A stretch of DNA of 64,000 nt from Minisyncoccota bacterium (lineage in GTDB: Bacteria; Patescibacteriota; Minisyncoccia; SW-4-49-11). The translations under genes and the position numbers were made by a program. A model generated the notes under the pieces. It saw only the letters and a list, made by a program, of their open reading frames with translations, ran no database searches and was not told where the DNA came from. The stretch spans positions 2,798 to 66,797 of the forward strand of contig JAULZW010000003.1 of the NCBI GenBank assembly GCA_032117235.1, written 5' to 3'. Shown here piece after piece: positions 21,777 through 60,511 of this stretch. Position 1 is the stretch's first letter. Each line of letters begins with the position of its first letter.

Positions 21777-21811
21777 GGGGAGGGTTAAGGCGACATAAGG
21801 TCGCCCCTACG
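21777..21811. repeat. GC-rich hairpin element ggggagggttaaggcgacataaggtcgcccctacg
   Basis: Seen directly; carries the CCCCTACG core shared with other repeat copies; sits in a divergent intergenic region. Confidence 0.4.
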
Positions 21812-23995: not shown

Positions 23996-24118
23996 AGATT
24001 ATAAATTTATTGTACATATATATTACAATACTTAATAACAAAAGTCAACTTAATACAAAAATCTGTATTAAAAACATTTTAACTTCAATACATAATGACT
24101 TTAAGAAAAGTAAAACAA

Positions 24119-24180
24119 AAACTCGAGACATTGCTCGAGCTTTCATAATAATCACCAGAGCTAGGCTCTGGATCGGTAGG
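24119..24180. promoter_or_regulatory. two hairpins (ctcgagacattgctcgag; ccagagctaggctctgg) in the divergent AbiL-like/mod promoter region
   Basis: Perfect inverted repeats seen directly between divergently transcribed defence genes; candidate operator sites. Confidence 0.3.
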
Positions 24181-24249
24181 TAACCCCAAAAGTAAGATAA
24201 TTATAGAATAGTTTAGTGATAGTGTCAATAGTTGATGGTGAGGTTTTAT

Positions 24250-24287
24250 CCTCCTCCGACCTTACGGCCACCTCCTCCAAAGGAGGA
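24250..24287. repeat. GC-rich palindromic element copy (cctcctccgaccttacggccacctcctccaaaggagga)
   Basis: Shares the architecture cctcc..TACGG..cctccaaaggagg with 28189-28228 and relatives. Confidence 0.55.
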
Positions 24288-24438
24288 CAAGTAATTATCT
24301 TATATTCTATGCAAATCTTTAATTTATTGACTTTTTATCTCGTAATTTGTCTACGATCATCTAATCGAGTACATACTCTGTATTTTTATGGGATTACAAG
24401 GTATAATATAAGATATATAGAATAATAAATTATAATAT

Positions 24439-26208
24439 ATGCCAGGAATTAATTTTAGGTCAATTATATTATCAGTATTGGAGGCGGATGAGAGAATTTG
24501 GTTTCAAAATGAAGAGGGAGAGAAGGAATTAAATCAAACTTTGCTTTTGGATTTGGTAGAAAAGATTGATGATAAGATTATTAATTTATTATTACAAGAG
24601 GAGGCTTTGAGAGAGAAGTTTTTTGCTAAAATTAGTCCAGATACTACTGAGAAGCAGTCTACTTATGTCTTCAAGATGAATGACTTTAGATTCTTTATGG
24701 AGGAGAATAAAATAGATAATTCTTATACAGCTTATAAAAACAGAATAGGGCTGATAGATGGGAAGAAATTCCTCAAAGATAGTAATGATATAGTGCTAAA
24801 TTGGCCGTATAAAGATTGTATTTTGGAAGGTGGGCAAAGTAATGAGGAAGGCACGGATAATTATTTTGAATACTCCGAAAAGACAGAGCAGTACGAACAA
24901 AAACAAGCTAAAAGAAAAGAGATATTTTTTAATTCCGTTCTTGCTCCTGATGAAATTGATAGATTATTAGACCCCAAGGCCTTGGTGAATTGGAAAAGGT
25001 TTACAGATAATGGTGAAGTTTCTTTAACCCAAAAACACTCCACCCCGTCACCTACGGTGCCACCCCTCAAGAGGGGAATTGATGGTACTATTGCTGAGAA
25101 TATGATTATCAAAGGTAATAATCTACTAGCTATGCATAGTCTCAAGAAGCAATTTGCAGGTAAAGTGAAGCTTATCTATATTGACCCGCCTTATAATACT
25201 GGGAATGATGGGTTTAAGTATAATGATAATTTTAATCATTCCACTTGGCTGACTTTTATGAAAAATAGATTAGAAGTAGCAAGGGAATTGTTAAGAGAGG
25301 ATGGAAGTATTTGGATAAGTTTAGATGATAAAGAATTTGCTTATCTAAAAGTACTTTGTGATGATATTTTTGGGAAAAATAATTTTTTGAATGATGTCAT
25401 TTGGAACTCAACAAAATCAGTAACAAATACTGCAATCATATCTGTTTCACATACACATAATTTAGTTTACTTCAAAAACAAAGATTATTATGTAAAGAAC
25501 AGAACAGAATTTAGACTTGATGAAGATGGGGAAGGATTTTCTAATCCTGACAATGATCCTCGTGGAGTTTGGAAATCCGATCCTTTTCAAGTTGGAGGCT
25601 GGAGACCAAATCAACAATATGAAATAAAAAACCCAAATACTGGAGTCATTTATAAACCAAATGAAAATTGTAGTTGGAAAAATGATCTTAACAAATTTCA
25701 AGAATTATTAAAAGATAATAGAATTGTTTTTGGAGTGGATGGAAAAGCTGGTCCACAAAGAAAAAGGTTTTTATTTGAAGCAGAAGAAAGAGGTAAAGTT
25801 ACAAAAACAATATGGGATGATGTAGGAACAACTACTAATGGAACTCAGCACATAAAAAAGCTTTTCAATAAAGCTGTATTTGATAATCCCAAACCAGAAG
25901 AGTTTATAAAAAGAATTATTGAACTTTCAACAAATGAAAACGACATTGTCCTTGACTATCATCTCGGATCTGGCACAACTGCCGCCGTAGCTCATAAAAT
26001 GGGGCGGCAATATATTGGGATTGAGCAGATGGATTATGTGGAGACTATTGCGGTGGAGAGGCTCAAAAAAGTGATAGGACAATCCACCTCCCCCGCTAAA
26101 GCGGGTACTACTCAAAAGGAGAATTTTAGGAAATTAACAGCAAAAAAAAGGCAAAGTTTGCAAGATATTTTGGAGAAAATAAAAAATTCTAATAATAGTT
26201 TAGGGTAA
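24439..26208 (+). CDS. mod: Type III restriction-modification DNA methyltransferase (Mod), N6-adenine, beta-class
   Basis: ENMIIKGNNLLAMHSL followed by motif IV DPPYNTG, then C-terminal motif I LDYHLGSGTTAAVAHKMGRQYIGIE; the N-terminus resembles Type III Mod N-termini. Confidence 0.85.
   Translation: MPGINFRSIILSVLEADERIWFQNEEGEKELNQTLLLDLVEKIDDKIINLLLQEEALREKFFAKISPDTTEKQSTYVFKMNDFRFFMEENKIDNSYTAYKNRIGLIDGKKFLKDSNDIVLNWPYKDCILEGGQSNEEGTDNYFEYSEKTEQYEQKQAKRKEIFFNSVLAPDEIDRLLDPKALVNWKRFTDNGEVSLTQKHSTPSPTVPPLKRGIDGTIAENMIIKGNNLLAMHSLKKQFAGKVKLIYIDPPYNTGNDGFKYNDNFNHSTWLTFMKNRLEVARELLREDGSIWISLDDKEFAYLKVLCDDIFGKNNFLNDVIWNSTKSVTNTAIISVSHTHNLVYFKNKDYYVKNRTEFRLDEDGEGFSNPDNDPRGVWKSDPFQVGGWRPNQQYEIKNPNTGVIYKPNENCSWKNDLNKFQELLKDNRIVFGVDGKAGPQRKRFLFEAEERGKVTKTIWDDVGTTTNGTQHIKKLFNKAVFDNPKPEEFIKRIIELSTNENDIVLDYHLGSGTTAAVAHKMGRQYIGIEQMDYVETIAVERLKKVIGQSTSPAKAGTTQKENFRKLTAKKRQSLQDILEKIKNSNNSLG
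25036..25080. repeat. 45-nt GC-rich palindromic element inserted in frame within mod (encodes HSTPSPTVPPLKRG-like segment)
   Basis: cactccaccccgtcacctacggtgccacccctcaagaggggaatt; 19-nt core GTGGCACCGTAGGTGACGG is identical (reverse complement) to 28105-28123; flanks match 29071-29112. Confidence 0.6.
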
Positions 26209-26212
26209 AGAT

Positions 26213-27193
26213 ATGACTAAAAAAAGTAAAATCCAATACAGCTTAATACCTTTTAATGGAGATGAAATAATGGCAATTACCAAAGATGGTAAAAAGTTTG
26301 TAGTACCAAAACAGATTTGTGAGAATTTAGGGTTGTCATGGAGTGGTCAATTTGAAAAAATTAAAAGAGACAGTGTCTTAAAGGACGCAATTCGTGTCAT
26401 ACCAATACCGCAAAAAAACCCTTCAGGATCAGGGTTTATAAATCAAGAAACTCTAGCTTTACCACTGGAATATCTCAATGGTTGGTTATTTGGAATTGAT
26501 GATACGAGAGTAAAAGAAGCAATTAGGCCAAAAATAATTGATTATAAAAAGCAATGTTATATTGTTTTATATGAATATTTTAATAAAGGTGCAAGTATTG
26601 ATGTCAATAGATTAGAGGAGGATATTGAATTACAAGACTATATTTACCGCAAAGTTCGCCAAGCTAGAACTAGTGAAAGGAGTTTATGGGAGAGAGTTAA
26701 AAAAGCCTTTGAATATGGGAGTAAAGATTATGATAAAGATTCTGAATTAGCCAAAAAGTTTTATGCTTTAGCTCAAGATAAAATTCATTATGCGGTTACC
26801 AAAAATATAGCTTCTGAACTTATATATAATAGAATAAAAACAGATCCAGCAACAAATTTTGGTATGATTGCATTTGACCAATATAGAAAAATTAAGTTAA
26901 AAGATTTACAAGTAGGTAAAAATTATTTGCAAGAATTAGAGTTAAAACAGTATGAAAATATTGGAGAACAGCTTTTACTTAAAATCGAATTAAGATTATT
27001 AAGAGGTGGTAAAATAACTATGGAAGAATGGTTTTTTGAAATAAATGATTTATTAAAACAAAATGGATATGAAATTTTATTTGATTATTCTAAATCCAAG
27101 ATAGATCGTCAAACTGCTAATAGTAAAGCTAAAGAAATATGGAAAGAAAATAAGCATTTACTCAAAGAAGATGTTAAAAAACTAACTAAATAA
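26213..27193 (+). CDS. phage antirepressor-like protein (Bro-N/AntA/pRha-type N-terminal domain, uncharacterised C-terminal domain)
   Basis: N-terminus IPFNGDEIMAITKDGKKFVVPKQICENLGLSWSGQFEKIKRD and LPLEYLNGWLFGIDDTRVKEAIRPKIIDYKKQCYIVLYEYF resemble phage antirepressor/RhuM-like N-terminal regions. Confidence 0.45.
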   Translation: MTKKSKIQYSLIPFNGDEIMAITKDGKKFVVPKQICENLGLSWSGQFEKIKRDSVLKDAIRVIPIPQKNPSGSGFINQETLALPLEYLNGWLFGIDDTRVKEAIRPKIIDYKKQCYIVLYEYFNKGASIDVNRLEEDIELQDYIYRKVRQARTSERSLWERVKKAFEYGSKDYDKDSELAKKFYALAQDKIHYAVTKNIASELIYNRIKTDPATNFGMIAFDQYRKIKLKDLQVGKNYLQELELKQYENIGEQLLLKIELRLLRGGKITMEEWFFEINDLLKQNGYEILFDYSKSKIDRQTANSKAKEIWKENKHLLKEDVKKLTK

Positions 27194-27728: not shown

Positions 27729-28115
27729 ATGAATGATAAATTAAAAAAATCATCTAATCAAACAATAGAGTCTAGCTCAGGTATTAAGAAAAACTTAATA
27801 ACTTCTACTGGTGATAAAAAAGATAATTCAATTATTTTATTTAATCAAAAAGAAGTTCGCAGATACTGGGATGCGGATCAAGAGCAGTGGTACTTTTCGG
27901 TTGTGGATGTGATTGAAATTTTGACAGGCTCTAGTATTCCGAAAAGATATTGGAGTGACTTAAAAAATAAACTAAAAGAAGAAGGAAGTGAAGTGTACGA
28001 AAAAATCGTACGGTTGAAAATGAAAGCAGAAGATGGAACAGGGATTAATAATCTTATGTTTAAACTACAACATTATCCTTTTAACTGTCCTCCCTTGGGG
28101 GAGGTGGCACCGTAG
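27729..28115 (+). CDS. Bro-N domain protein (128 aa)
   Basis: ILFNQKEVRRYWDADQEQWYFSVVDVIEILTGS matches the Bro-N/ORF6N consensus (iRvv..dGepWFvakDVa..Lg); the C-terminus and stop codon lie inside a GC-rich repeat element. Confidence 0.5.
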   Translation: MNDKLKKSSNQTIESSSGIKKNLITSTGDKKDNSIILFNQKEVRRYWDADQEQWYFSVVDVIEILTGSSIPKRYWSDLKNKLKEEGSEVYEKIVRLKMKAEDGTGINNLMFKLQHYPFNCPPLGEVAP

Positions 28116-28130
28116 GTGACGGAGGAGGAC
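28087..28130. repeat. GC-rich palindromic element copy (gtcctcccttgggggaggtggcaccgtaggtgacggaggaggac)
   Basis: 5' half near-identical to 52427-52452; core identical to the in-frame copy in mod. Confidence 0.6.
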
Positions 28131-28188: not shown

Positions 28189-28228
28189 GTCCTCCCTCCC
28201 CCTACGGGGACTCCCTCCAAAGGGAGAC
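28189..28228. repeat. GC-rich palindromic element copy (gtcctccctccccctacggggactccctccaaagggagac)
   Basis: Same architecture as 24250-24287. Confidence 0.55.
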
Positions 28229-28352: not shown

Positions 28353-31145
28353 ATGTCTGAGATCAAAAACTTATATGAGATAATCAACACTCAAAAGCAA
28401 GGATTAAAAAACTTTAATCCTGAAATTTTTGAAATCCCAGATTATATTTCTAATAATTTGAAATATAGTTTTTTTGATTGGCAAAGGGAGGCTTTGGAGA
28501 ACTTTTTATTTTATCAAAATCCAAAATCAAATTTAGCTAAATCCCCTACTCATCTAATGTTCAATATGGCGACTGGAACGGGGAAAACTATGCTAATGGC
28601 GGCTTCTATTTTGTATTATTATAAACAGGGTTATCGGCATTTTATCTTTTTTGTGAATCAAAATAATATTGTTAGTAAGACAGAGAATAATTTTATTGCT
28701 AATTTGCATAATAAGTATTTATTTCAAGACAAAATTGTGATTGATAATCAGACGGTGGAGATTAAAAAAGTGGAGGCTTTTAGTGATAATCCGACTGGTA
28801 TTGAGATTAAATTCACTTCGGTACAAAAATTATATAATGATATTCATTTACAAAGAGAAAACCAGACTACTTTACCGGATTTATGGAATAAAAATATTGT
28901 AATGTTGGCTGATGAGGCTCATCATCTCAATACGGATACTAAAAAAGCGAAATTACAGACCGCTTTACTTGACACTGAACTGAACAATAAATCTAGTGAA
29001 AATGTGGTTGAAAAGCTAGGCTGGGAGCATACGGTGATTGAATTGATTTTGAATAAAAATAATAAAAAATCCACCCCGCTGTCTAAAGACAGCACCCCTC
29101 AAGAGGGGAATTCTAACTGTAATGTCTTATTAGAATTTACGGCGACTATTCCAGCTACTGCCAGTGTGGCGAAGAAATATGAGGATAAAATTATTTATAA
29201 ATTTGATTTGAAGCAATTTTTGCAAGCTGGGTTTACGAAGCAGATTAATCTGATTTCTTCTAATCTGAATAAGCGGGATAGAATTTTGCAGGCTTTATTA
29301 TTTCATTGGTATCGGCATAAAGTTGCTCTGGATGCTGGTATTCCTAATTTTAAGCCGGTGATTTTATTCCGTAGCAAGACTATTGAGGAGTCTAAGTATG
29401 ATTATGAGGAGTTTTTGGATATGATTCAGAATTTGAGTTTGGATGATTTACAATTTTTGGATTATATTTTAGAGAACTTTAAGTTTGCTAATCATAGTTT
29501 GTATGAACAAGGTAAGAATAGGACAGAGCAATTAGTAGATTATATTCAAGTTAATAAAATTAAAAGAAGTGAGATTATTGACTTTTTGAAGCAGAATTTC
29601 CAAGCTAAAAATGTGATTATTACTAACTCTAAGAGTAATAAAACTAAAAAAGAAAAAACTGATGAGGAAATAGATAATTTATTGAATAATTTGGAGGACA
29701 AAAATAATCATATTCGAGCTATTTTTACAGTGGAGAGATTAACTGAAGGTTGGGATGTGCTGAATTTATATGATATTGTACGGTTATATGAGGGGCAGAA
29801 TACAGGAGGGTCTTATCAGAAAGGTAATAAACCTCCTGAATCTACCACCAAAGAAAAGCAGTTAATTGGTCGTGGAGTGAGATATTATCCTTTTGATTAT
29901 CCAGAAAAAGAGAGGCATCGGCGAAAATTTGATAATGATACTCAAAAACGAGAGCGAATTTTGGAGGAGTTATTCTTTTATAGTATCAATGAAAGTAGGT
30001 ATATCTCGGAGTTAAAAACCGAGCTCAAGAGGGATGGGTTTATTGATGAGAATCGTAATATTAGAACCTTTGAATTGAAGGATAGCTTTAAGAAAACCAA
30101 TTTCTATAAACAGGTTAAAGTTTGGCAGAATAAAAAAATCCCGAATCCAAATAGACGGAAGAATACTCTAGCCGATTTGAAGCAAGATAAAAATTATTTT
30201 ATGTCTGCTTATCAGGTGCCAACTTATAGTGTAAGAGAAGACGGAGTGGACTTTGAGAAGGAGGAAAAAGAATATAGATTGAATCAAATGGCTAATCCAA
30301 ACTCTAACTTTGAGATTCCTTTAGCTAAGATGGAGAAACATATTTTTTATAAAGCGATTCATATTTTATCTAAACAAAGCAATTCTTTATATCGTTTTGA
30401 TAATTTGAGGCAAGAATTGAATATTGATAGTATGGAGGATTTGTTGCAAGCGGAGTTTTTGGGAGATATTATGATACCTTTTAAGCTACCAGCTAAAATG
30501 ACTTATCAGGATTTGGATAATAAGCATAAATTACAGGCAGTGATGCAAGTTTTGACTGATATTGAGCGAAGATTAGCGGAGTCTATTAGTGAATATATTG
30601 GTAGTAAGGAGTTTTATCCAAAGAGTTTGGAGAGTATTTTTGGAGCTCCGAAAGCTAAGGCGATTGACACTTTGAATGAGCATACCGAGATGGCTGAACA
30701 AAATGATTGGTATGTTTTGAATAATTTTGTAGGCACAGATCAGGAGCAGTCTTTACTGGAGTTTATCAAAAGCTCTATGTCTGAGTTAGAGCAAAAATAC
30801 GGTGAGATTTATTTATTAAGAAATGAAGAGGTGTATGGGATTTATGATTTTGACAAAGGTAGAACTTTTATGCCGGACTTTTTGTTATTTTTGAAAACTA
30901 AGGATAAACACAATGTAGGAGTGTCTAAGACGGAACTATACTATCAGGTATTTATTGAGCCAAAAGGTGCTCAATTAGCAACTTTGGATGCTTGGAAAAA
31001 TGACTTTCTAGCTGAAATTCAATATAATTATAAATTGGAGAATATAATTCAAGCTGAAAACTCTAATTATAGATTGATTGGACTACCTTTCTTTAATACT
31101 AATCTAAGTGCCGAGTTTAGAGATAAATTCTCAGAATTAATTTAA
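28353..31145 (+). CDS. res: Type III restriction enzyme Res subunit (SF2 DEAH helicase plus C-terminal PD-(D/E)xK endonuclease)
   Basis: Motif I ATGTGKT, motif II LADEAHHL, helicase C motifs (QLIGRGVR), C-terminal MPDFLLF...YQVFIEPKG nuclease motif. Confidence 0.85.
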   Translation: MSEIKNLYEIINTQKQGLKNFNPEIFEIPDYISNNLKYSFFDWQREALENFLFYQNPKSNLAKSPTHLMFNMATGTGKTMLMAASILYYYKQGYRHFIFFVNQNNIVSKTENNFIANLHNKYLFQDKIVIDNQTVEIKKVEAFSDNPTGIEIKFTSVQKLYNDIHLQRENQTTLPDLWNKNIVMLADEAHHLNTDTKKAKLQTALLDTELNNKSSENVVEKLGWEHTVIELILNKNNKKSTPLSKDSTPQEGNSNCNVLLEFTATIPATASVAKKYEDKIIYKFDLKQFLQAGFTKQINLISSNLNKRDRILQALLFHWYRHKVALDAGIPNFKPVILFRSKTIEESKYDYEEFLDMIQNLSLDDLQFLDYILENFKFANHSLYEQGKNRTEQLVDYIQVNKIKRSEIIDFLKQNFQAKNVIITNSKSNKTKKEKTDEEIDNLLNNLEDKNNHIRAIFTVERLTEGWDVLNLYDIVRLYEGQNTGGSYQKGNKPPESTTKEKQLIGRGVRYYPFDYPEKERHRRKFDNDTQKRERILEELFFYSINESRYISELKTELKRDGFIDENRNIRTFELKDSFKKTNFYKQVKVWQNKKIPNPNRRKNTLADLKQDKNYFMSAYQVPTYSVREDGVDFEKEEKEYRLNQMANPNSNFEIPLAKMEKHIFYKAIHILSKQSNSLYRFDNLRQELNIDSMEDLLQAEFLGDIMIPFKLPAKMTYQDLDNKHKLQAVMQVLTDIERRLAESISEYIGSKEFYPKSLESIFGAPKAKAIDTLNEHTEMAEQNDWYVLNNFVGTDQEQSLLEFIKSSMSELEQKYGEIYLLRNEEVYGIYDFDKGRTFMPDFLLFLKTKDKHNVGVSKTELYYQVFIEPKGAQLATLDAWKNDFLAEIQYNYKLENIIQAENSNYRLIGLPFFNTNLSAEFRDKFSELI
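29071..29112. repeat. 42-nt GC-rich palindromic element inserted in frame within res (encodes STPLSKDSTPQEGN-like segment)
   Basis: ccaccccgctgtctaaagacagcacccctcaagaggggaatt; flanks identical to the mod copy (ccaccccg ... cacccctcaagaggggaatt), with a different internal palindrome gctgtctaaagacagc. Confidence 0.6.
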
Positions 31146-47211: not shown

Positions 47212-47213
47212 AA

Positions 47214-47250
47214 GAAAAAAGCCCGAGCCTAGTGGCGCGGGCTTAAGAAA
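47214..47250. terminator. bidirectional GC-hairpin terminator between convergent genes
   Basis: aaaaaagcccg..gcgcgggctt; A-run before, T-run after on the minus strand. Confidence 0.5.
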
Positions 47251-47273
47251 GGAAACTATTTTTTATTAACTAT

Positions 47274-52426: not shown

Positions 52427-52466
52427 GTCCTCCTTAGGAGGAGGTGGCACGAAGTGCCGGAGGTGG
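52427..52466. repeat. GC-rich palindromic element copy inside the oriC region
   Basis: gtcctccttaggaggaggtggcacgaagtgccggaggtgg; 5' half matches 28087-28112. Confidence 0.55.
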
Positions 52467-52530
52467 ATAGAGATAAAAGTTATTTATATTTTCTAATAAT
52501 ATTAAATTTTAGAATATGGACTTACTTTTA

Positions 52531-52590
52531 CCCACCCCCGCCTTTCAGGCTTCCCCCCTCCCTGCCTACCGCAGGCAGGCAAAGGGGGAC
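52531..52590. repeat. C-rich/G-rich palindromic element (cccacccccgcctttcaggcttcccccctccctgcctaccgcaggcaggcaaagggggac)
   Basis: Same cctcc...stem-loop...caaaggggg architecture; lies between the DnaA boxes and the AT-rich DUE-like tract. Confidence 0.5.
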
Positions 52591-53101: not shown

Positions 53102-54541
53102 CTAAGAATTTACCGGATTTTCTTCATTATAGAGTTTATTTTTAATCATAGTAATATCCTGCTCCAAAGTATAGTTGGAAATTAATTCTTTTTTGATCTT
53201 ATTCCAAGCATGCATAACCGTACTATGATCTTTACCACCTAAAGCCTCACCAATATTAGGAAAGGTTAATTTCAACTCTTCACGGATTAAATACATAGCA
53301 ATTTGGCGTGGTACAGCAATATCTTTTTTACGGCTTTTAGATAATATATCCTCTTTTTTAATATTAAAGTGCCCAGAAACAATTTCCAAAATCATATCTA
53401 TATTTACAATTCTTTGAGAGTGAATTTGACCACCTTCAATCAGTTTATCTACCAATTCAGGAGTAATTTTAGTATTAAGTAACTGTACTCTAGCAATAAT
53501 TTTATTTAAAGCACCTTCTAACTCTCGCACATTGCTTTTGATTCTCTCAGCAATAACATAAATAATCTCGTCATCTAAATCAAAATGTTTTTGAATACAT
53601 TTGCTTTTCAAAATAGCCACTCTAGTTTCAAATTCAGGAATAGCTACATCCACAATCATTCCACCTTCAAAGCGAGATTTTAATCTATCATTAAGGGTTT
53701 TAATAGCACTAGGTGGTCTATCGCTAGTAAAAACAATTTGTTTATTATGAGCATATAATTCATTAAAAGTATTAAAAACCTCATATTGAGTGGCCTCTTT
53801 CCCTCCAATAAATTGAATATCGTCAATTATTAGCAAGTCCACCGCTCTATGCCTAGCTTTAAAGTCATCCATTTTCCCATTTTTGAGAGAATTCATCAAA
53901 TCTGAGATAAAAACATCCGAAGTTACATACAGAATATTTTTATTATTCTTCACCAATTTATTAGCAATAGCTTGAATCAAATGAGTTTTACCAAGTCCCA
54001 CACCACCATAAATAAATAAAGGATTATATCTAGTACCAGGCTCATTTGCTACCGATTGAGCAGCAGCATGAGCGAGTTCATTAGATGAACCTACAATAAA
54101 GTTTTCAAAAGTATAATTGTCTTTTAATAAAGAAATTCCAGTTGATTTTGTGACTTTTACAAAATTATTATTAGTCTCAGAAGTAAAGCTACCATTAGCT
54201 ATATTGACTTCAGACAGAGCTTCTCTCTGAGATTGAAGCTCCTGATCCTTTAGATTAATAACTGATTTAATAGATTTAGAGTTTGTTTTTTGGTTATTTT
54301 TAACTACATATCTAACTTTTTTTACCGAACCAGTAATTTTTTGAATAGAATTAAGAATAGTAAGGTTGAATTTATTTTCTAGCCAATTACGAGTAAAAGC
54401 ACTAGGAACACAAATTACAATCTCACTTTCATCCATACTAATAGGATAAGTGTTTTTAATCCAGGTATTAAATTGAGGTTTACTAATATTAAGTTCTATT
54501 TCACCTAATACAGAATTCCAAACTCTTTGTTTCTCGTCCAT
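53102..54541 (-). CDS. dnaA: chromosomal replication initiator DnaA
   Basis: AAA+ Walker A GGVGLGKTHL, Walker B LLIIDDIQF, sensor motifs, C-terminal DNA-binding domain IAMYLIREELKLTFPNIGEALGGKDHSTV. Confidence 0.9.
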   Translation of the reverse strand: MDEKQRVWNSVLGEIELNISKPQFNTWIKNTYPISMDESEIVICVPSAFTRNWLENKFNLTILNSIQKITGSVKKVRYVVKNNQKTNSKSIKSVINLKDQELQSQREALSEVNIANGSFTSETNNNFVKVTKSTGISLLKDNYTFENFIVGSSNELAHAAAQSVANEPGTRYNPLFIYGGVGLGKTHLIQAIANKLVKNNKNILYVTSDVFISDLMNSLKNGKMDDFKARHRAVDLLIIDDIQFIGGKEATQYEVFNTFNELYAHNKQIVFTSDRPPSAIKTLNDRLKSRFEGGMIVDVAIPEFETRVAILKSKCIQKHFDLDDEIIYVIAERIKSNVRELEGALNKIIARVQLLNTKITPELVDKLIEGGQIHSQRIVNIDMILEIVSGHFNIKKEDILSKSRKKDIAVPRQIAMYLIREELKLTFPNIGEALGGKDHSTVMHAWNKIKKELISNYTLEQDITMIKNKLYNEENPVNS

Positions 54542-60282: not shown

Positions 60283-60290
60283 AAACAAAA

Positions 60291-60313
60291 AAGCCCCGCG
60301 ATGTGCGGGGTTG
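60291..60313 (+). terminator. GC hairpin terminator (ccccgcg-atgt-gcgggg)
   Basis: Stem seen directly; the T-run is weak (tt). Confidence 0.4.
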
Positions 60314-60511
60314 GGTATGTTGTGAGGGCTGGGATTAACCGTCTGATTCTCCGTAACCTTCTTCAAGCTCTTCTTCCTCACAACAATTTTCGGGGTCTAT
60401 TCTCCTCACCGCTGTGATTACAATACCCACATAATTGGCACTAGAGTTAAGGTTTGGTAAGGGGGAAAAGTAAATGACATATAATAAGTTATAAAAATAA
60501 GATAATCGCTA

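Follow-up and report, generated by a model that had tools for sequence, protein, structure and literature searches.

A GC-rich double-hairpin repeat, probably selfish DNA, within the type III restriction gene res of a Paceibacteria genome

The systems closest to the element reported here are several described classes of small palindromic repeats and one RNA family. The element is a 43-nucleotide (nt) double hairpin that lies in frame inside res, the gene for the restriction subunit of a type III restriction-modification (R-M) system, in a 64,000-nt stretch of DNA from a Minisyncoccota bacterium (assembly GCA_032117235.1, contig JAULZW010000003.1, positions 2,798 to 66,797, forward strand; the whole stretch is called the window). 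Among the Rickettsia palindromic elements (RPEs) described by Ogata and colleagues in 2000 and 2002, RPE-1 is reportedly 100–150 base pairs (bp) long and confined to Rickettsia. The cyanobacterial small dispersed repeats (SDRs) SDR1–8, which Elhai and colleagues described in 2008, are said to be tens of nucleotides long, to form compensated hairpins, to carry nested insertions and to have been proposed to move through RNA.

REPINs (REP, repetitive extragenic palindromic) are lineage-specific and extragenic, often occur as inverted doublets around a spacer and are proposed to act as single-stranded DNA (ssDNA) hairpins (Bertels & Rainey 2011, PMC3116915). REPs tagged with CGTC have an unpaired CGTC (or TGTC/CCTC) head, stems of 8–9 bp, loops of 4–5 nt and a 3-nt CCA tail, form predominantly head-to-head dimers, occur in several phyla including Thermotogae and have no transposase gene; RPE-4 and RPE-6 have been equated with them (Di Nocera et al. 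2013, PMC3733652). Finally, whalefall-1 (Rfam RF01762) is known only from whale-fall metagenomes and was interpreted as a small RNA (sRNA); its authors, citing covariation and tetraloops, rated it “certainly RNA” (Weinberg et al. 2010, PMC2864571).

We consider it likely that the segment in res is a copy of a dispersed, non-autonomous, GC-rich double-hairpin repeat, selfish DNA of the REP or MITE (miniature inverted-repeat transposable element) type, tolerated in a coil of Res. The genes and element copies that carry the comparison are listed here, with scores from R1, a covariance model built from copies of the family:

28353–31145, + strand: res, type III restriction subunit, 930 amino acids (aa) (Pfam ResIII, 1.2e-23)
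29070–29112, + strand: the res copy, 43 nt including a shared T at 29070; its codons span 29070–29111
24439–26208, + strand: mod, type III methyltransferase, 589 aa, with two element copies inside (Pfam N6_N4_Mtase and TypeIII_RM_meth)
25039–25080, + strand: the mod copy, with the same arms and hairpin 1 CACC-TAC-GGTG (R1, 58.6 bits)

The res copy consists of a 5′ arm, TCCACCCCG (29070–29078), a perfect palindrome that forms hairpin 1 (GCTGTC-TAAA-GACAGC, 29078–29093, with a 6-bp stem and a 4-nt loop) and a 3′ arm, CACCCCTCAAGAGGGGAATT (29093–29112), which contains hairpin 2 (CCCCT-CAAG-AGGGG). R1 scores it at 53.8 bits (E = 4e-11), and as RNA its two hairpins fold with a minimum free energy of −16.8 kcal/mol (z = −4.0). 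Within the open reading frame (ORF) 28353–31145 it reads in frame, with no stop codon, as STPLSKDSTPQEGN. Only two exact matches to the 20-mer CACCCCTCAAGAGGGGAATT exist in the window, one in mod (25061) and one in res (29093); both are on the + strand with TCCACCCCG ahead of them, and none of 100 shuffles contained the 20-mer. An initial annotation made from the letters alone (the first-pass annotation) had described the segment as 42 nt in frame, or 14 codons, at 29071–29112. The sequence and the frame were as it said, whereas the codon span is really 29070–29111 and the net gain over empty alleles is 39 nt (13 codons), with the flanks replaced as well. It was right that the segment lies between helicase motif II (DEAH, residues 187–190) and the later motifs (TAT, residues 263–265), that its flanks are the same as those of the mod copy (9 + 20 identical arm bases) and that the internal palindromes of the two copies differ.

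Res itself has the features of a type III enzyme, namely a ResIII helicase domain with motifs I, II (DEAH) and III (TAT) and an adjacent type III Mod, and thousands of its homologues are annotated as type III restriction enzymes. The segment was missing from 118 of 120 Res homologues. When Res was aligned with 60 of them, the region read ...ILNKNGKK-ED-NKNVLLEFTAT, and extra residues were present only in the 99% identical protein P0001; among the members listed of the 90% cluster of P0001, 12 of 15 keep the segment and 3 lack it. Three alleles of 917 aa from other metagenomes, at 96–98% identity, read ILNKN-GNLIDNT-NVLLEF where the filled allele reads ILNKN-NKK[STPLSKDSTPQEGN]SNC-NVLLEF. At the DNA level the empty allele (loci L125 and L126) is AAAAAT/GGGAATTTGATAGATAACACT/AATGTC and the filled allele is AAAAAT/AATAAAAAATCCACC...GGGGAATTCTAACTGT/AATGTC, a net difference of 39 nt in which about 20 nt of flank differ as well; the empty site already has GGGAATT, the sequence with which the element ends on its 3′ side. 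The res copy was identical in three independent assemblies (ENA, JGI and Logan; L001–L003) despite synonymous differences nearby. Thus neither protein-level conservation across Res orthologues nor loss of the frame in other assemblies, the two findings that the first-pass annotation had named as telling against an inserted element, was seen, and the segment is not native Res sequence.

An AlphaFold2 model of Res (51 sequences; mean predicted local distance difference test score (pLDDT) 64.9; predicted template modelling score 0.37) placed residues 238–257 in a coil between the helix 224–237 and the strand of motif III, 258–263, with pLDDT below 50 for residues 236–254; no solved structure resembles Res by sequence. 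The first-pass annotation had proposed checking whether the hairpin falls in a surface loop. The predicted coil fits a tolerated loop insertion, although a coil is no proof of surface exposure. The effect of the insertion on the R-M system is probably neutral.

The same arms are found far outside this genome. A scan of one genome per GTDB species matched the exact 20-mer in no fewer than 119 stretches, spread over more than 10 phyla. Among the matches listed, the hosts were Paceibacteria/Parcubacteria, Saccharibacteria, Gracilibacteria and Peribacteria on the Patescibacteria side; Bacteroidota (including isolates of Pedobacter, Flavobacterium and Parasediminibacterium), Ignavibacteria and Kapabacteria; a Thermotogaceae metagenome-assembled genome (MAG), termite-gut Bacillota MAGs, Limisphaerales (Verrucomicrobiota), Nitrospirota and Simkania (Chlamydiota); and Desulfobulbaceae, Sulfurovum, Bdellovibrionales, Hyphomicrobiales and Cloacimonadota. 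From the window and loci L001–L124 we drew 153 copies with the 3′ arm. The 5′ arm CCACCCCG, which had not been part of the query, was nevertheless conserved upstream in 143 of them (∼93%) with at most one mismatch, at an arm-to-arm gap of 9–30 nt (a single outlier had 48 nt). What lies between the arms was always a hairpin, in 108 distinct sequences. In 31 gap-free copies, hairpin 1 showed double changes in 5 of 6 pairs; 42 double-change cells were counted against 12.9 in shuffles, none of 500 shuffles was as high, and the covariation score of 0.326 fell to 0.06 or less once the partner columns were slid. Hairpin 1 types went with lineage (CAAYC/GRTTG in the Thermotogaceae MAG, GCC/GGC in Bacteroidota, CATGC/GCATG in Kapabacteria), and the arms alone were common across phyla. 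The idea of a modular element with conserved arms and a variable hairpin, raised from the two window copies, is therefore strongly borne out: the repeats form a dispersed family whose arms are conserved and whose hairpin covaries, and it is well supported that the res segment is a translated member of it.

R1 gave 157 matches in 736 kb, some with altered hairpin 2 loops, and hairpin 2 itself showed compensatory variants between subfamilies (CCCCTC/GAGGGG, CTCCTC/GAGGAG and CCTCC/GGAGG). Paired copies and nested insertions occur in the family. Matches at most 150 nt apart were head-to-head in 10 cases, tail-to-tail in 8 and tandem in 6, a mild head-to-head bias, and a copy in L092 (1000–1091, − strand) carries in its 3′ arm a 43-nt insert with the hairpin GTTCGGG-AAA-CCCGAAC, a nested insertion of small elements. 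A literature search on the element sequence found no publication, and the exact 20-mer had no match in 2.9 million viral contigs. Phages were also considered as carriers and rejected: a looser arm pattern gave 72 matches there, all of which except L194 were chance matches in GC-rich phage DNA with no hairpin.

Small palindromic repeats are the best-fitting published class for this family. As in the CGTC-tagged REPs, hairpin 1 in most copies reads ...C-CGTC-stem-loop-stem-(G)CCA..., which gives a possible CGTC head and a CCA tail; some head-to-head dimers, in-frame intragenic copies, Thermotogae among the phyla and no associated transposase gene found are further points of likeness. The head is CCCCG-TC... 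with the T and C unpaired in most family copies, whereas the corresponding position of the res copy is paired (GCTGTC/GACAGC), and the tail is (C)CAC... after hairpin 1 in most copies and CAC/ACC in the res copy. In contrast to the CGTC-tagged REPs, the family has stems of 4–7 bp and loops mostly of 3 nt, a second hairpin that is both obligatory and conserved, some 29 nt of conserved arm sequence, and peptides unlike those listed for that class (PMC3733652).

The res copy shares with the RPEs that it is an in-frame palindromic repeat in an ORF, missing from orthologues; like them, the family consists of probably selfish palindromic repeats in frame in coding genes, here too in a genome that is reduced and AT-rich; the repeats are apparently tolerated in surface regions and vary among relatives. 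It differs in its apparently unrelated sequence, in its host, Paceibacteria, in its length of about 45 nt, in crossing phyla, and in peptides unlike those of RPE-4 and RPE-6 in PMC3733652, a comparison in which homology was judged from peptides only. Conceptually, the res copy is to Patescibacteria what an RPE inside a protein loop is to Rickettsia. REPINs, whose genomes hold a cognate Y1 (HUH) transposase gene, RAYT (REP-associated tyrosine transposase), usually flanked by the repeats, are likewise short GC-rich hairpin repeats, often in inverted doublets and supposedly active as ssDNA hairpins, but we found no RAYT in 989 kb of genome fragments, the arms of the family cross phyla, and about 20% of its copies lie in ORFs. 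As for MITEs, the element has only a short imperfect terminal inverted repeat (TTCCaCCC/GGGGAA), no duplication beyond T or TT and no insertion sequence (IS) found with it. The SDRs resemble it as very small dispersed hairpin elements with compensatory changes and nested insertions, and differ in sequence and host range. The combination of cross-phylum arm conservation and a free-sequence hairpin is unusual, as are the lack of an identifiable transposase and a probable kinship with an Rfam “sRNA”.

Kinship with whalefall-1 is likely. The reverse complement of the window copies has two hairpins and a conserved purine-rich tail, the second hairpin being variable, and whalefall-1, read on the opposite strand, is built of the same three parts, namely an arm rich in pyrimidines (GUCCUCCCUCU), a variable hairpin that covaries, and a C-rich/G-rich hairpin, UCUCCCC-loop-GGGGAGA, that is conserved. 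The CCTCC-type copies of the window were the best sub-threshold matches. The two differ in arm sequence, no copy reaches the whalefall-1 gathering score of 37, and the family described here is a dispersed repeat found in both orientations and also inside genes.

The R-M genes of related strains and of more distant cassettes showed that the element sites are filled in some and empty in others. In Mod, three sites were distinguished:

Mod site 1 (about residue 68): filled in L001 (Res 99% identical) and L004 (Res 81% identical); an unrelated 27-nt patch in the window and P0153
Mod site 2: filled in L004 only, empty or different in all others
Mod site 3 (that of the mod copy): filled in the window and L001, in L004 in opposite orientation, and in L095 in the same frame; empty in P0153/L127, where it reads ELKRREDGTI

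The Mod of L095, from Cloacimonadota, reads PPLKRGIDGTI at site 3, and in the Cloacimonetes Res P0103 (58% identity) the loop that corresponds to the site of the res copy contains ...TTQQFRGTPQEGNF.... The Cloacimonadota cassette is only 54–58% identical at the protein level, yet it has identical arms at the same Mod and Res sites. Such sharing would need site preference, repeated conversion or in-situ selection. Together with the opposite orientation in L004, the perfect arms in these cassettes suggest repeated independent hits or conversion at preferred sites. Since the flanks differ in each comparison of filled and empty alleles, the status of these sites may have been spread by allelic recombination and cassette transfer. 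The central target-recognition region of Mod is itself mosaic, differing among otherwise near-identical strains (the window and P0153 versus L001).

The element might instead be a structured RNA like whalefall-1, working as an sRNA or as a module in cis; the intragenic copies would then act as mRNA structures, for example in stabilization or pausing. This reading draws on sibling copies that match whalefall-1 at 25.4, 25.0 and 17.2 bits, on the opposite strand to its “certainly RNA” seed of the same architecture, on the clean folding of the res copy as RNA, and on loci in which head-to-head pairs surround AT-rich, promoter-like spacers. All of these matches stay under the gathering score of 37, however, and the res and mod copies had no Rfam match at E ≤ 10. 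At gathering thresholds, an Rfam scan of the window gave no family, and in a scan of 18 loci the families detected were tRNAs, Flavo-1 and an S4 leader, all of them clear of the elements; scans at permissive E-values added nothing beyond the sub-threshold whalefall-1 matches of sibling copies. The mod copy folds no better than shuffled sequence (z = +0.26). Hairpin 1 has mostly 3-nt loops, which are poor for RNA and are asymmetric: 48 copies read C-TNC-G and 6 read C-GAA-G, so that the G-rich strand reads C-GNA-G. This loop is said, from work by Hirao and by Yoshizawa, to be that of exceptionally stable DNA mini-hairpins, and it serves here only as a lead toward ssDNA activity. Covariation cannot separate RNA from DNA hairpins, and G-U pairs are nearly absent, too rare to tell the active strand. 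A census of 150 matches gave 25 copies in the same and 35 in the opposite orientation between co-directional genes, 17 sense and 15 antisense copies inside ORFs, 15 between convergent genes and 10 between divergent genes; that is, there is no bias in orientation relative to genes. This random orientation, the translation of copies in both sense and antisense frames, the paired and nested copies and the near-absence from phage contigs point to REP/MITE-like selfish DNA rather than strand-specific RNA, and we regard the RNA reading as improbable.

The selfish-repeat reading also has results that weigh against it. A tblastn search of 989 kb of element-bearing genome fragments, with provisional query sequences for IS608 TnpA and E. 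coli RAYT, found no IS200/RAYT-type gene (best E = 3.6). The comparisons of filled and empty alleles at the res site and at mod sites 1 and 3 yielded no clean insertion and no target-site duplication beyond T or TT; the alleles differ by a replaced patch of 20–60 nt, flanks included, which looks more like allelic recombination than fresh transposition. The identical arms at the same Mod and Res sites of the Cloacimonadota cassette count on the same side, and the structure model is poor overall, its low confidence at the insert arising partly from the absence of the insert in the alignment. Patch replacement with diverged flanks, the occupied Res loop of P0103, the occupied Mod site in L095 and (reversed) in L004, and the mosaic target-recognition regions would all agree with a res copy gained by homologous recombination, by gene conversion or with a transferred cassette, the elements being old passengers of Mod and Res. 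Most family copies nevertheless lie between unrelated genes in many genomes, so that dispersal is independent of R-M genes; the reversed copy at the Mod site of L004 argues for independent insertion and not inheritance, and perfect arms in cassettes 54–58% identical go beyond simple inheritance. We therefore hold this account to be rather unlikely. A linker native to Res, or an adaptive one, under protein-level selection would agree with the kept frame and with the retention of the segment in 12 of the 15 cluster members listed. The absence of the segment from 118 of 120 homologues and from three alleles at 96–98% identity speaks against this; mod uses a different reading frame of this DNA, and elsewhere five frames are used, three of them sense (STP..TPQEGN, HP..PPLKRGI and PPR..HPSRGE) and two antisense (IPLLRGG and NSPLEGW), and the segment falls in what is predicted, with low confidence, to be a coil. 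A native linker is thus very improbable and effectively refuted. Still less credible is an assembly or chimera artefact, given the identical copy in the independent ENA, JGI and Logan assemblies and the presence of the family in isolate genomes (Pedobacter, Flavobacterium and Parasediminibacterium).

If the res segment is a selfish repeat, its history may be sketched as follows. Elements of about 40–50 nt, laid out as 5′-(T)TCCACCCCG, a free-sequence hairpin and CACCCC-TCAAGA-GGGG-AATT-3′, are scattered through the AT-rich (32% GC) Patescibacteria genome. The two C-rich arms are the constrained part, presumably recognized by machinery acting in trans, and hairpin 1 would only have to pair, so that many lineages with the same arms and different hairpins could coexist. 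The elements would spread as DNA, probably by way of hairpins that the G-rich strand forms when single-stranded, with mobilization by a putative enzyme; allelic recombination and horizontal transfer of R-M cassettes would help to distribute filled sites. As no transposase was found and the alleles differ by patch replacement, we infer the mechanism of mobilization only. In the variable coil of Res, with the frame kept and no stop codon, the ∼14 extra residues are simply translated and tolerated.

It is possible, though doubtful, that the arms and their CCTCC-type variants (TCCACCCCG ... CACCCCTCAAGAGGGGAATT) are recognition sites of a widespread ssDNA-hairpin machinery that mobilizes ∼45-nt elements in at least 10 phyla with no RAYT or IS partner nearby. 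The elements would then be among the smallest mobile DNAs known, the whalefall-1 “sRNA” would really be a member of a mobile-repeat superfamily, and the recurrent occupation of Mod and Res would reflect a target preference for sequence resembling the 3′ arm, such as the GGGAATT (res) and AAGAG..G (mod) at empty sites. All-against-all clustering of 1,353 ORFs from element-bearing loci revealed no recurrent candidate enzyme across phyla; the only groups to emerge were ABC transporters and a loose cluster around the Mod gene of L095 as seed, in which the true Mod relatives were only L004 and L095. A longer MITE in the Thermotogaceae MAG was considered and rejected, only ∼12 + 20 nt of extra conserved flank and some neighboring unrelated modules being present; the Thermotogaceae copies had no terminal inverted repeats or target-site duplication.

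If the selfish-repeat reading is right, the Candidate Phyla Radiation (Patescibacteria) and many low-GC bacteria share a family of extremely small hairpin repeats that sit in genes and add peptide loops as the Rickettsia RPEs do. Its arm sequence of ∼29 nt is conserved across phyla, whereas ordinary REPs are lineage-specific, and the arms offer a sequence handle for seeking the mobilizing enzyme. The family would explain odd peptides that recur in MAG proteomes (TPQEGN, PPLKRGI, IPLLRGG and NSPLEGW) and would warn that at least one Rfam “sRNA” family may be a DNA repeat. Polymorphic element sites could also help to type strains.

A scan of the window (32% GC) for GC-rich islands, together with reading of the sequence, located the siblings of the res and mod copies:

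24249–24287, + strand: CCTCC-type sibling, 150 nt upstream of mod, TCCTCCTCCG-ACCTTACGG-CCACCTCCTCC AAA GGAGGA
26082–26127, + strand: subfamily-2 copy near the 3′ end of mod, TCCACCTCC-CCCGC TAAA GCGGG-TACTCCTCAAGAGGAGAAT (R1, 22.7 bits)
28087–28130, − strand: CCTCC-type sibling, left half of head-to-head pair 1 (whalefall-1, 17.2 bits)
28190–28228, + strand: CCTCC-type sibling, right half of pair 1, 125 nt upstream of res (whalefall-1, 25.4 bits)
52428–52467, − strand: sibling, left half of head-to-head pair 2, downstream of dnaA, TCCACCTCCG-GCAC TTCG GTGC-CACCTCCTCC TAA GGAGGA
52531–52589, + strand: larger, apparently nested sibling, right half of pair 2 (weak R1 match, 7.1 bits)

The window thus holds at least eight family copies, and both of its pairs are head-to-head. 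Six of the eight lie within 5 kb (24.2–29.2 kb; p ∼5e-6 by our own binomial estimate), which makes the R-M locus a local hotspot. The first-pass annotation had found it striking that both subunits of one system were hit. Both are, but the hotspot takes in the whole R-M locus, the mod genes of related strains hold further copies at other sites, and in Cloacimonadota Mod and Res are occupied at the same two sites. The mod copy is translated as STPSPTVPPLKRGI, in a frame different from that of the res copy, and is missing from the allele P0153/L127, which is at least 90% identical. The copy at 26082–26127 has two substitutions in hairpin 2 and encodes STSPAKAGTTQKEN; its subfamily (TCCACCTCC-CCCGCTAAAGCGGG-TACTCCTCAAGAGGAGAAT) was also found in L004, L006, L007, L067 and L104. 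The sibling at 24249–24287 is conserved in strains L001 and L127, and that at 28087–28130 has the same hairpin 1 as the mod copy and overlaps the end of a truncated Bro-N-like ORF. In each variant the 5′ arm and the 5′ strand of hairpin 2 are alike (CCACCCC/CACCCCTC, CCTCCTCC/CCACCTCCTCC and CCTCCCTCC/ACTCCCTCC), so that hairpin 1 is flanked by a direct repeat of a C-rich motif.

The locus of the window is rearranged, with the Bro-N-like gene truncated at the location of a head-to-head element pair. Between mod and res lie a RhuM/P22 antirepressor-like gene (26213–27193), a 169-aa ORF and the truncated Bro-N-like ORF (27729–28115). In L127, mod is followed directly by an intact 305-aa Bro-N gene and then by res; L126 carries rhuM, the 169-aa ORF and an intact Bro-N. 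This difference in gene content among the window, L126 and L127 indicates that the cargo of the R-M operon is variable. The window Mod stops shortly beyond the subfamily-2 element (3′ end of mod, 26076–26208) and lacks ∼100 C-terminal residues (GGISKAVNWQGGGDF...) found in P0153 (661 aa) and L004 (721 aa). The UvrB of the window is 93–94% identical to proteins named Candidatus Parcubacteria/Paceibacterota, and the host is a freshwater member of the Paceibacteria; a cyanobacterial host, suggested by the aldehyde-decarbonylase gene of L125, was rejected on the strength of these UvrB relatives. UvrB homologues longer by 14 aa were considered as insertions and rejected, being alternative start-codon calls.

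Some further features were observed in the loci examined. The type III Mod homologue of the Cloacimonadota MAG (L095, 6544–7935) contains at least four element copies in both orientations and, at the position of the window mod copy, an inserted domain whose sequence looks Vsr/DUF559-like. In L125 (3943–4650), an aldehyde-decarbonylase-like gene (PF11266, usually cyanobacterial) lies between an SNase gene and rpsF; it is not in the window. In Flavobacterium paronense (L102, 2577–2743), an element copy lies ∼35 nt downstream of a Flavo-1 sRNA (70.9 bits). Another GC-rich hairpin module (GGGG..GGCGAC-loop-GTCGCCCC) occurs at 21777–21807 of the window, 3010–3030 of L065 and 5250–5262 of L015 and adjoins double-hairpin elements in several Paceibacteria loci; Paceibacteria genomes appear to carry several tiny hairpin-repeat families in mosaics.

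In the window, gene orientation flips from − to + across a 443-nt AT-rich intergenic region (23996–24438), where the GC skew changes sign too; the region may hold a replication origin or may only mark where two operons meet, and dnaA itself is at 53102–54541 on the − strand. GC-rich stem-loops that follow A-runs at 47213–47252 (AAAAAAGCCCG...CGGGCTT) and 60286–60334 (AAAAAAGCCCCGCG...CGGGGTT) are unrelated to the element family and resemble ordinary, possibly bidirectional, terminators.

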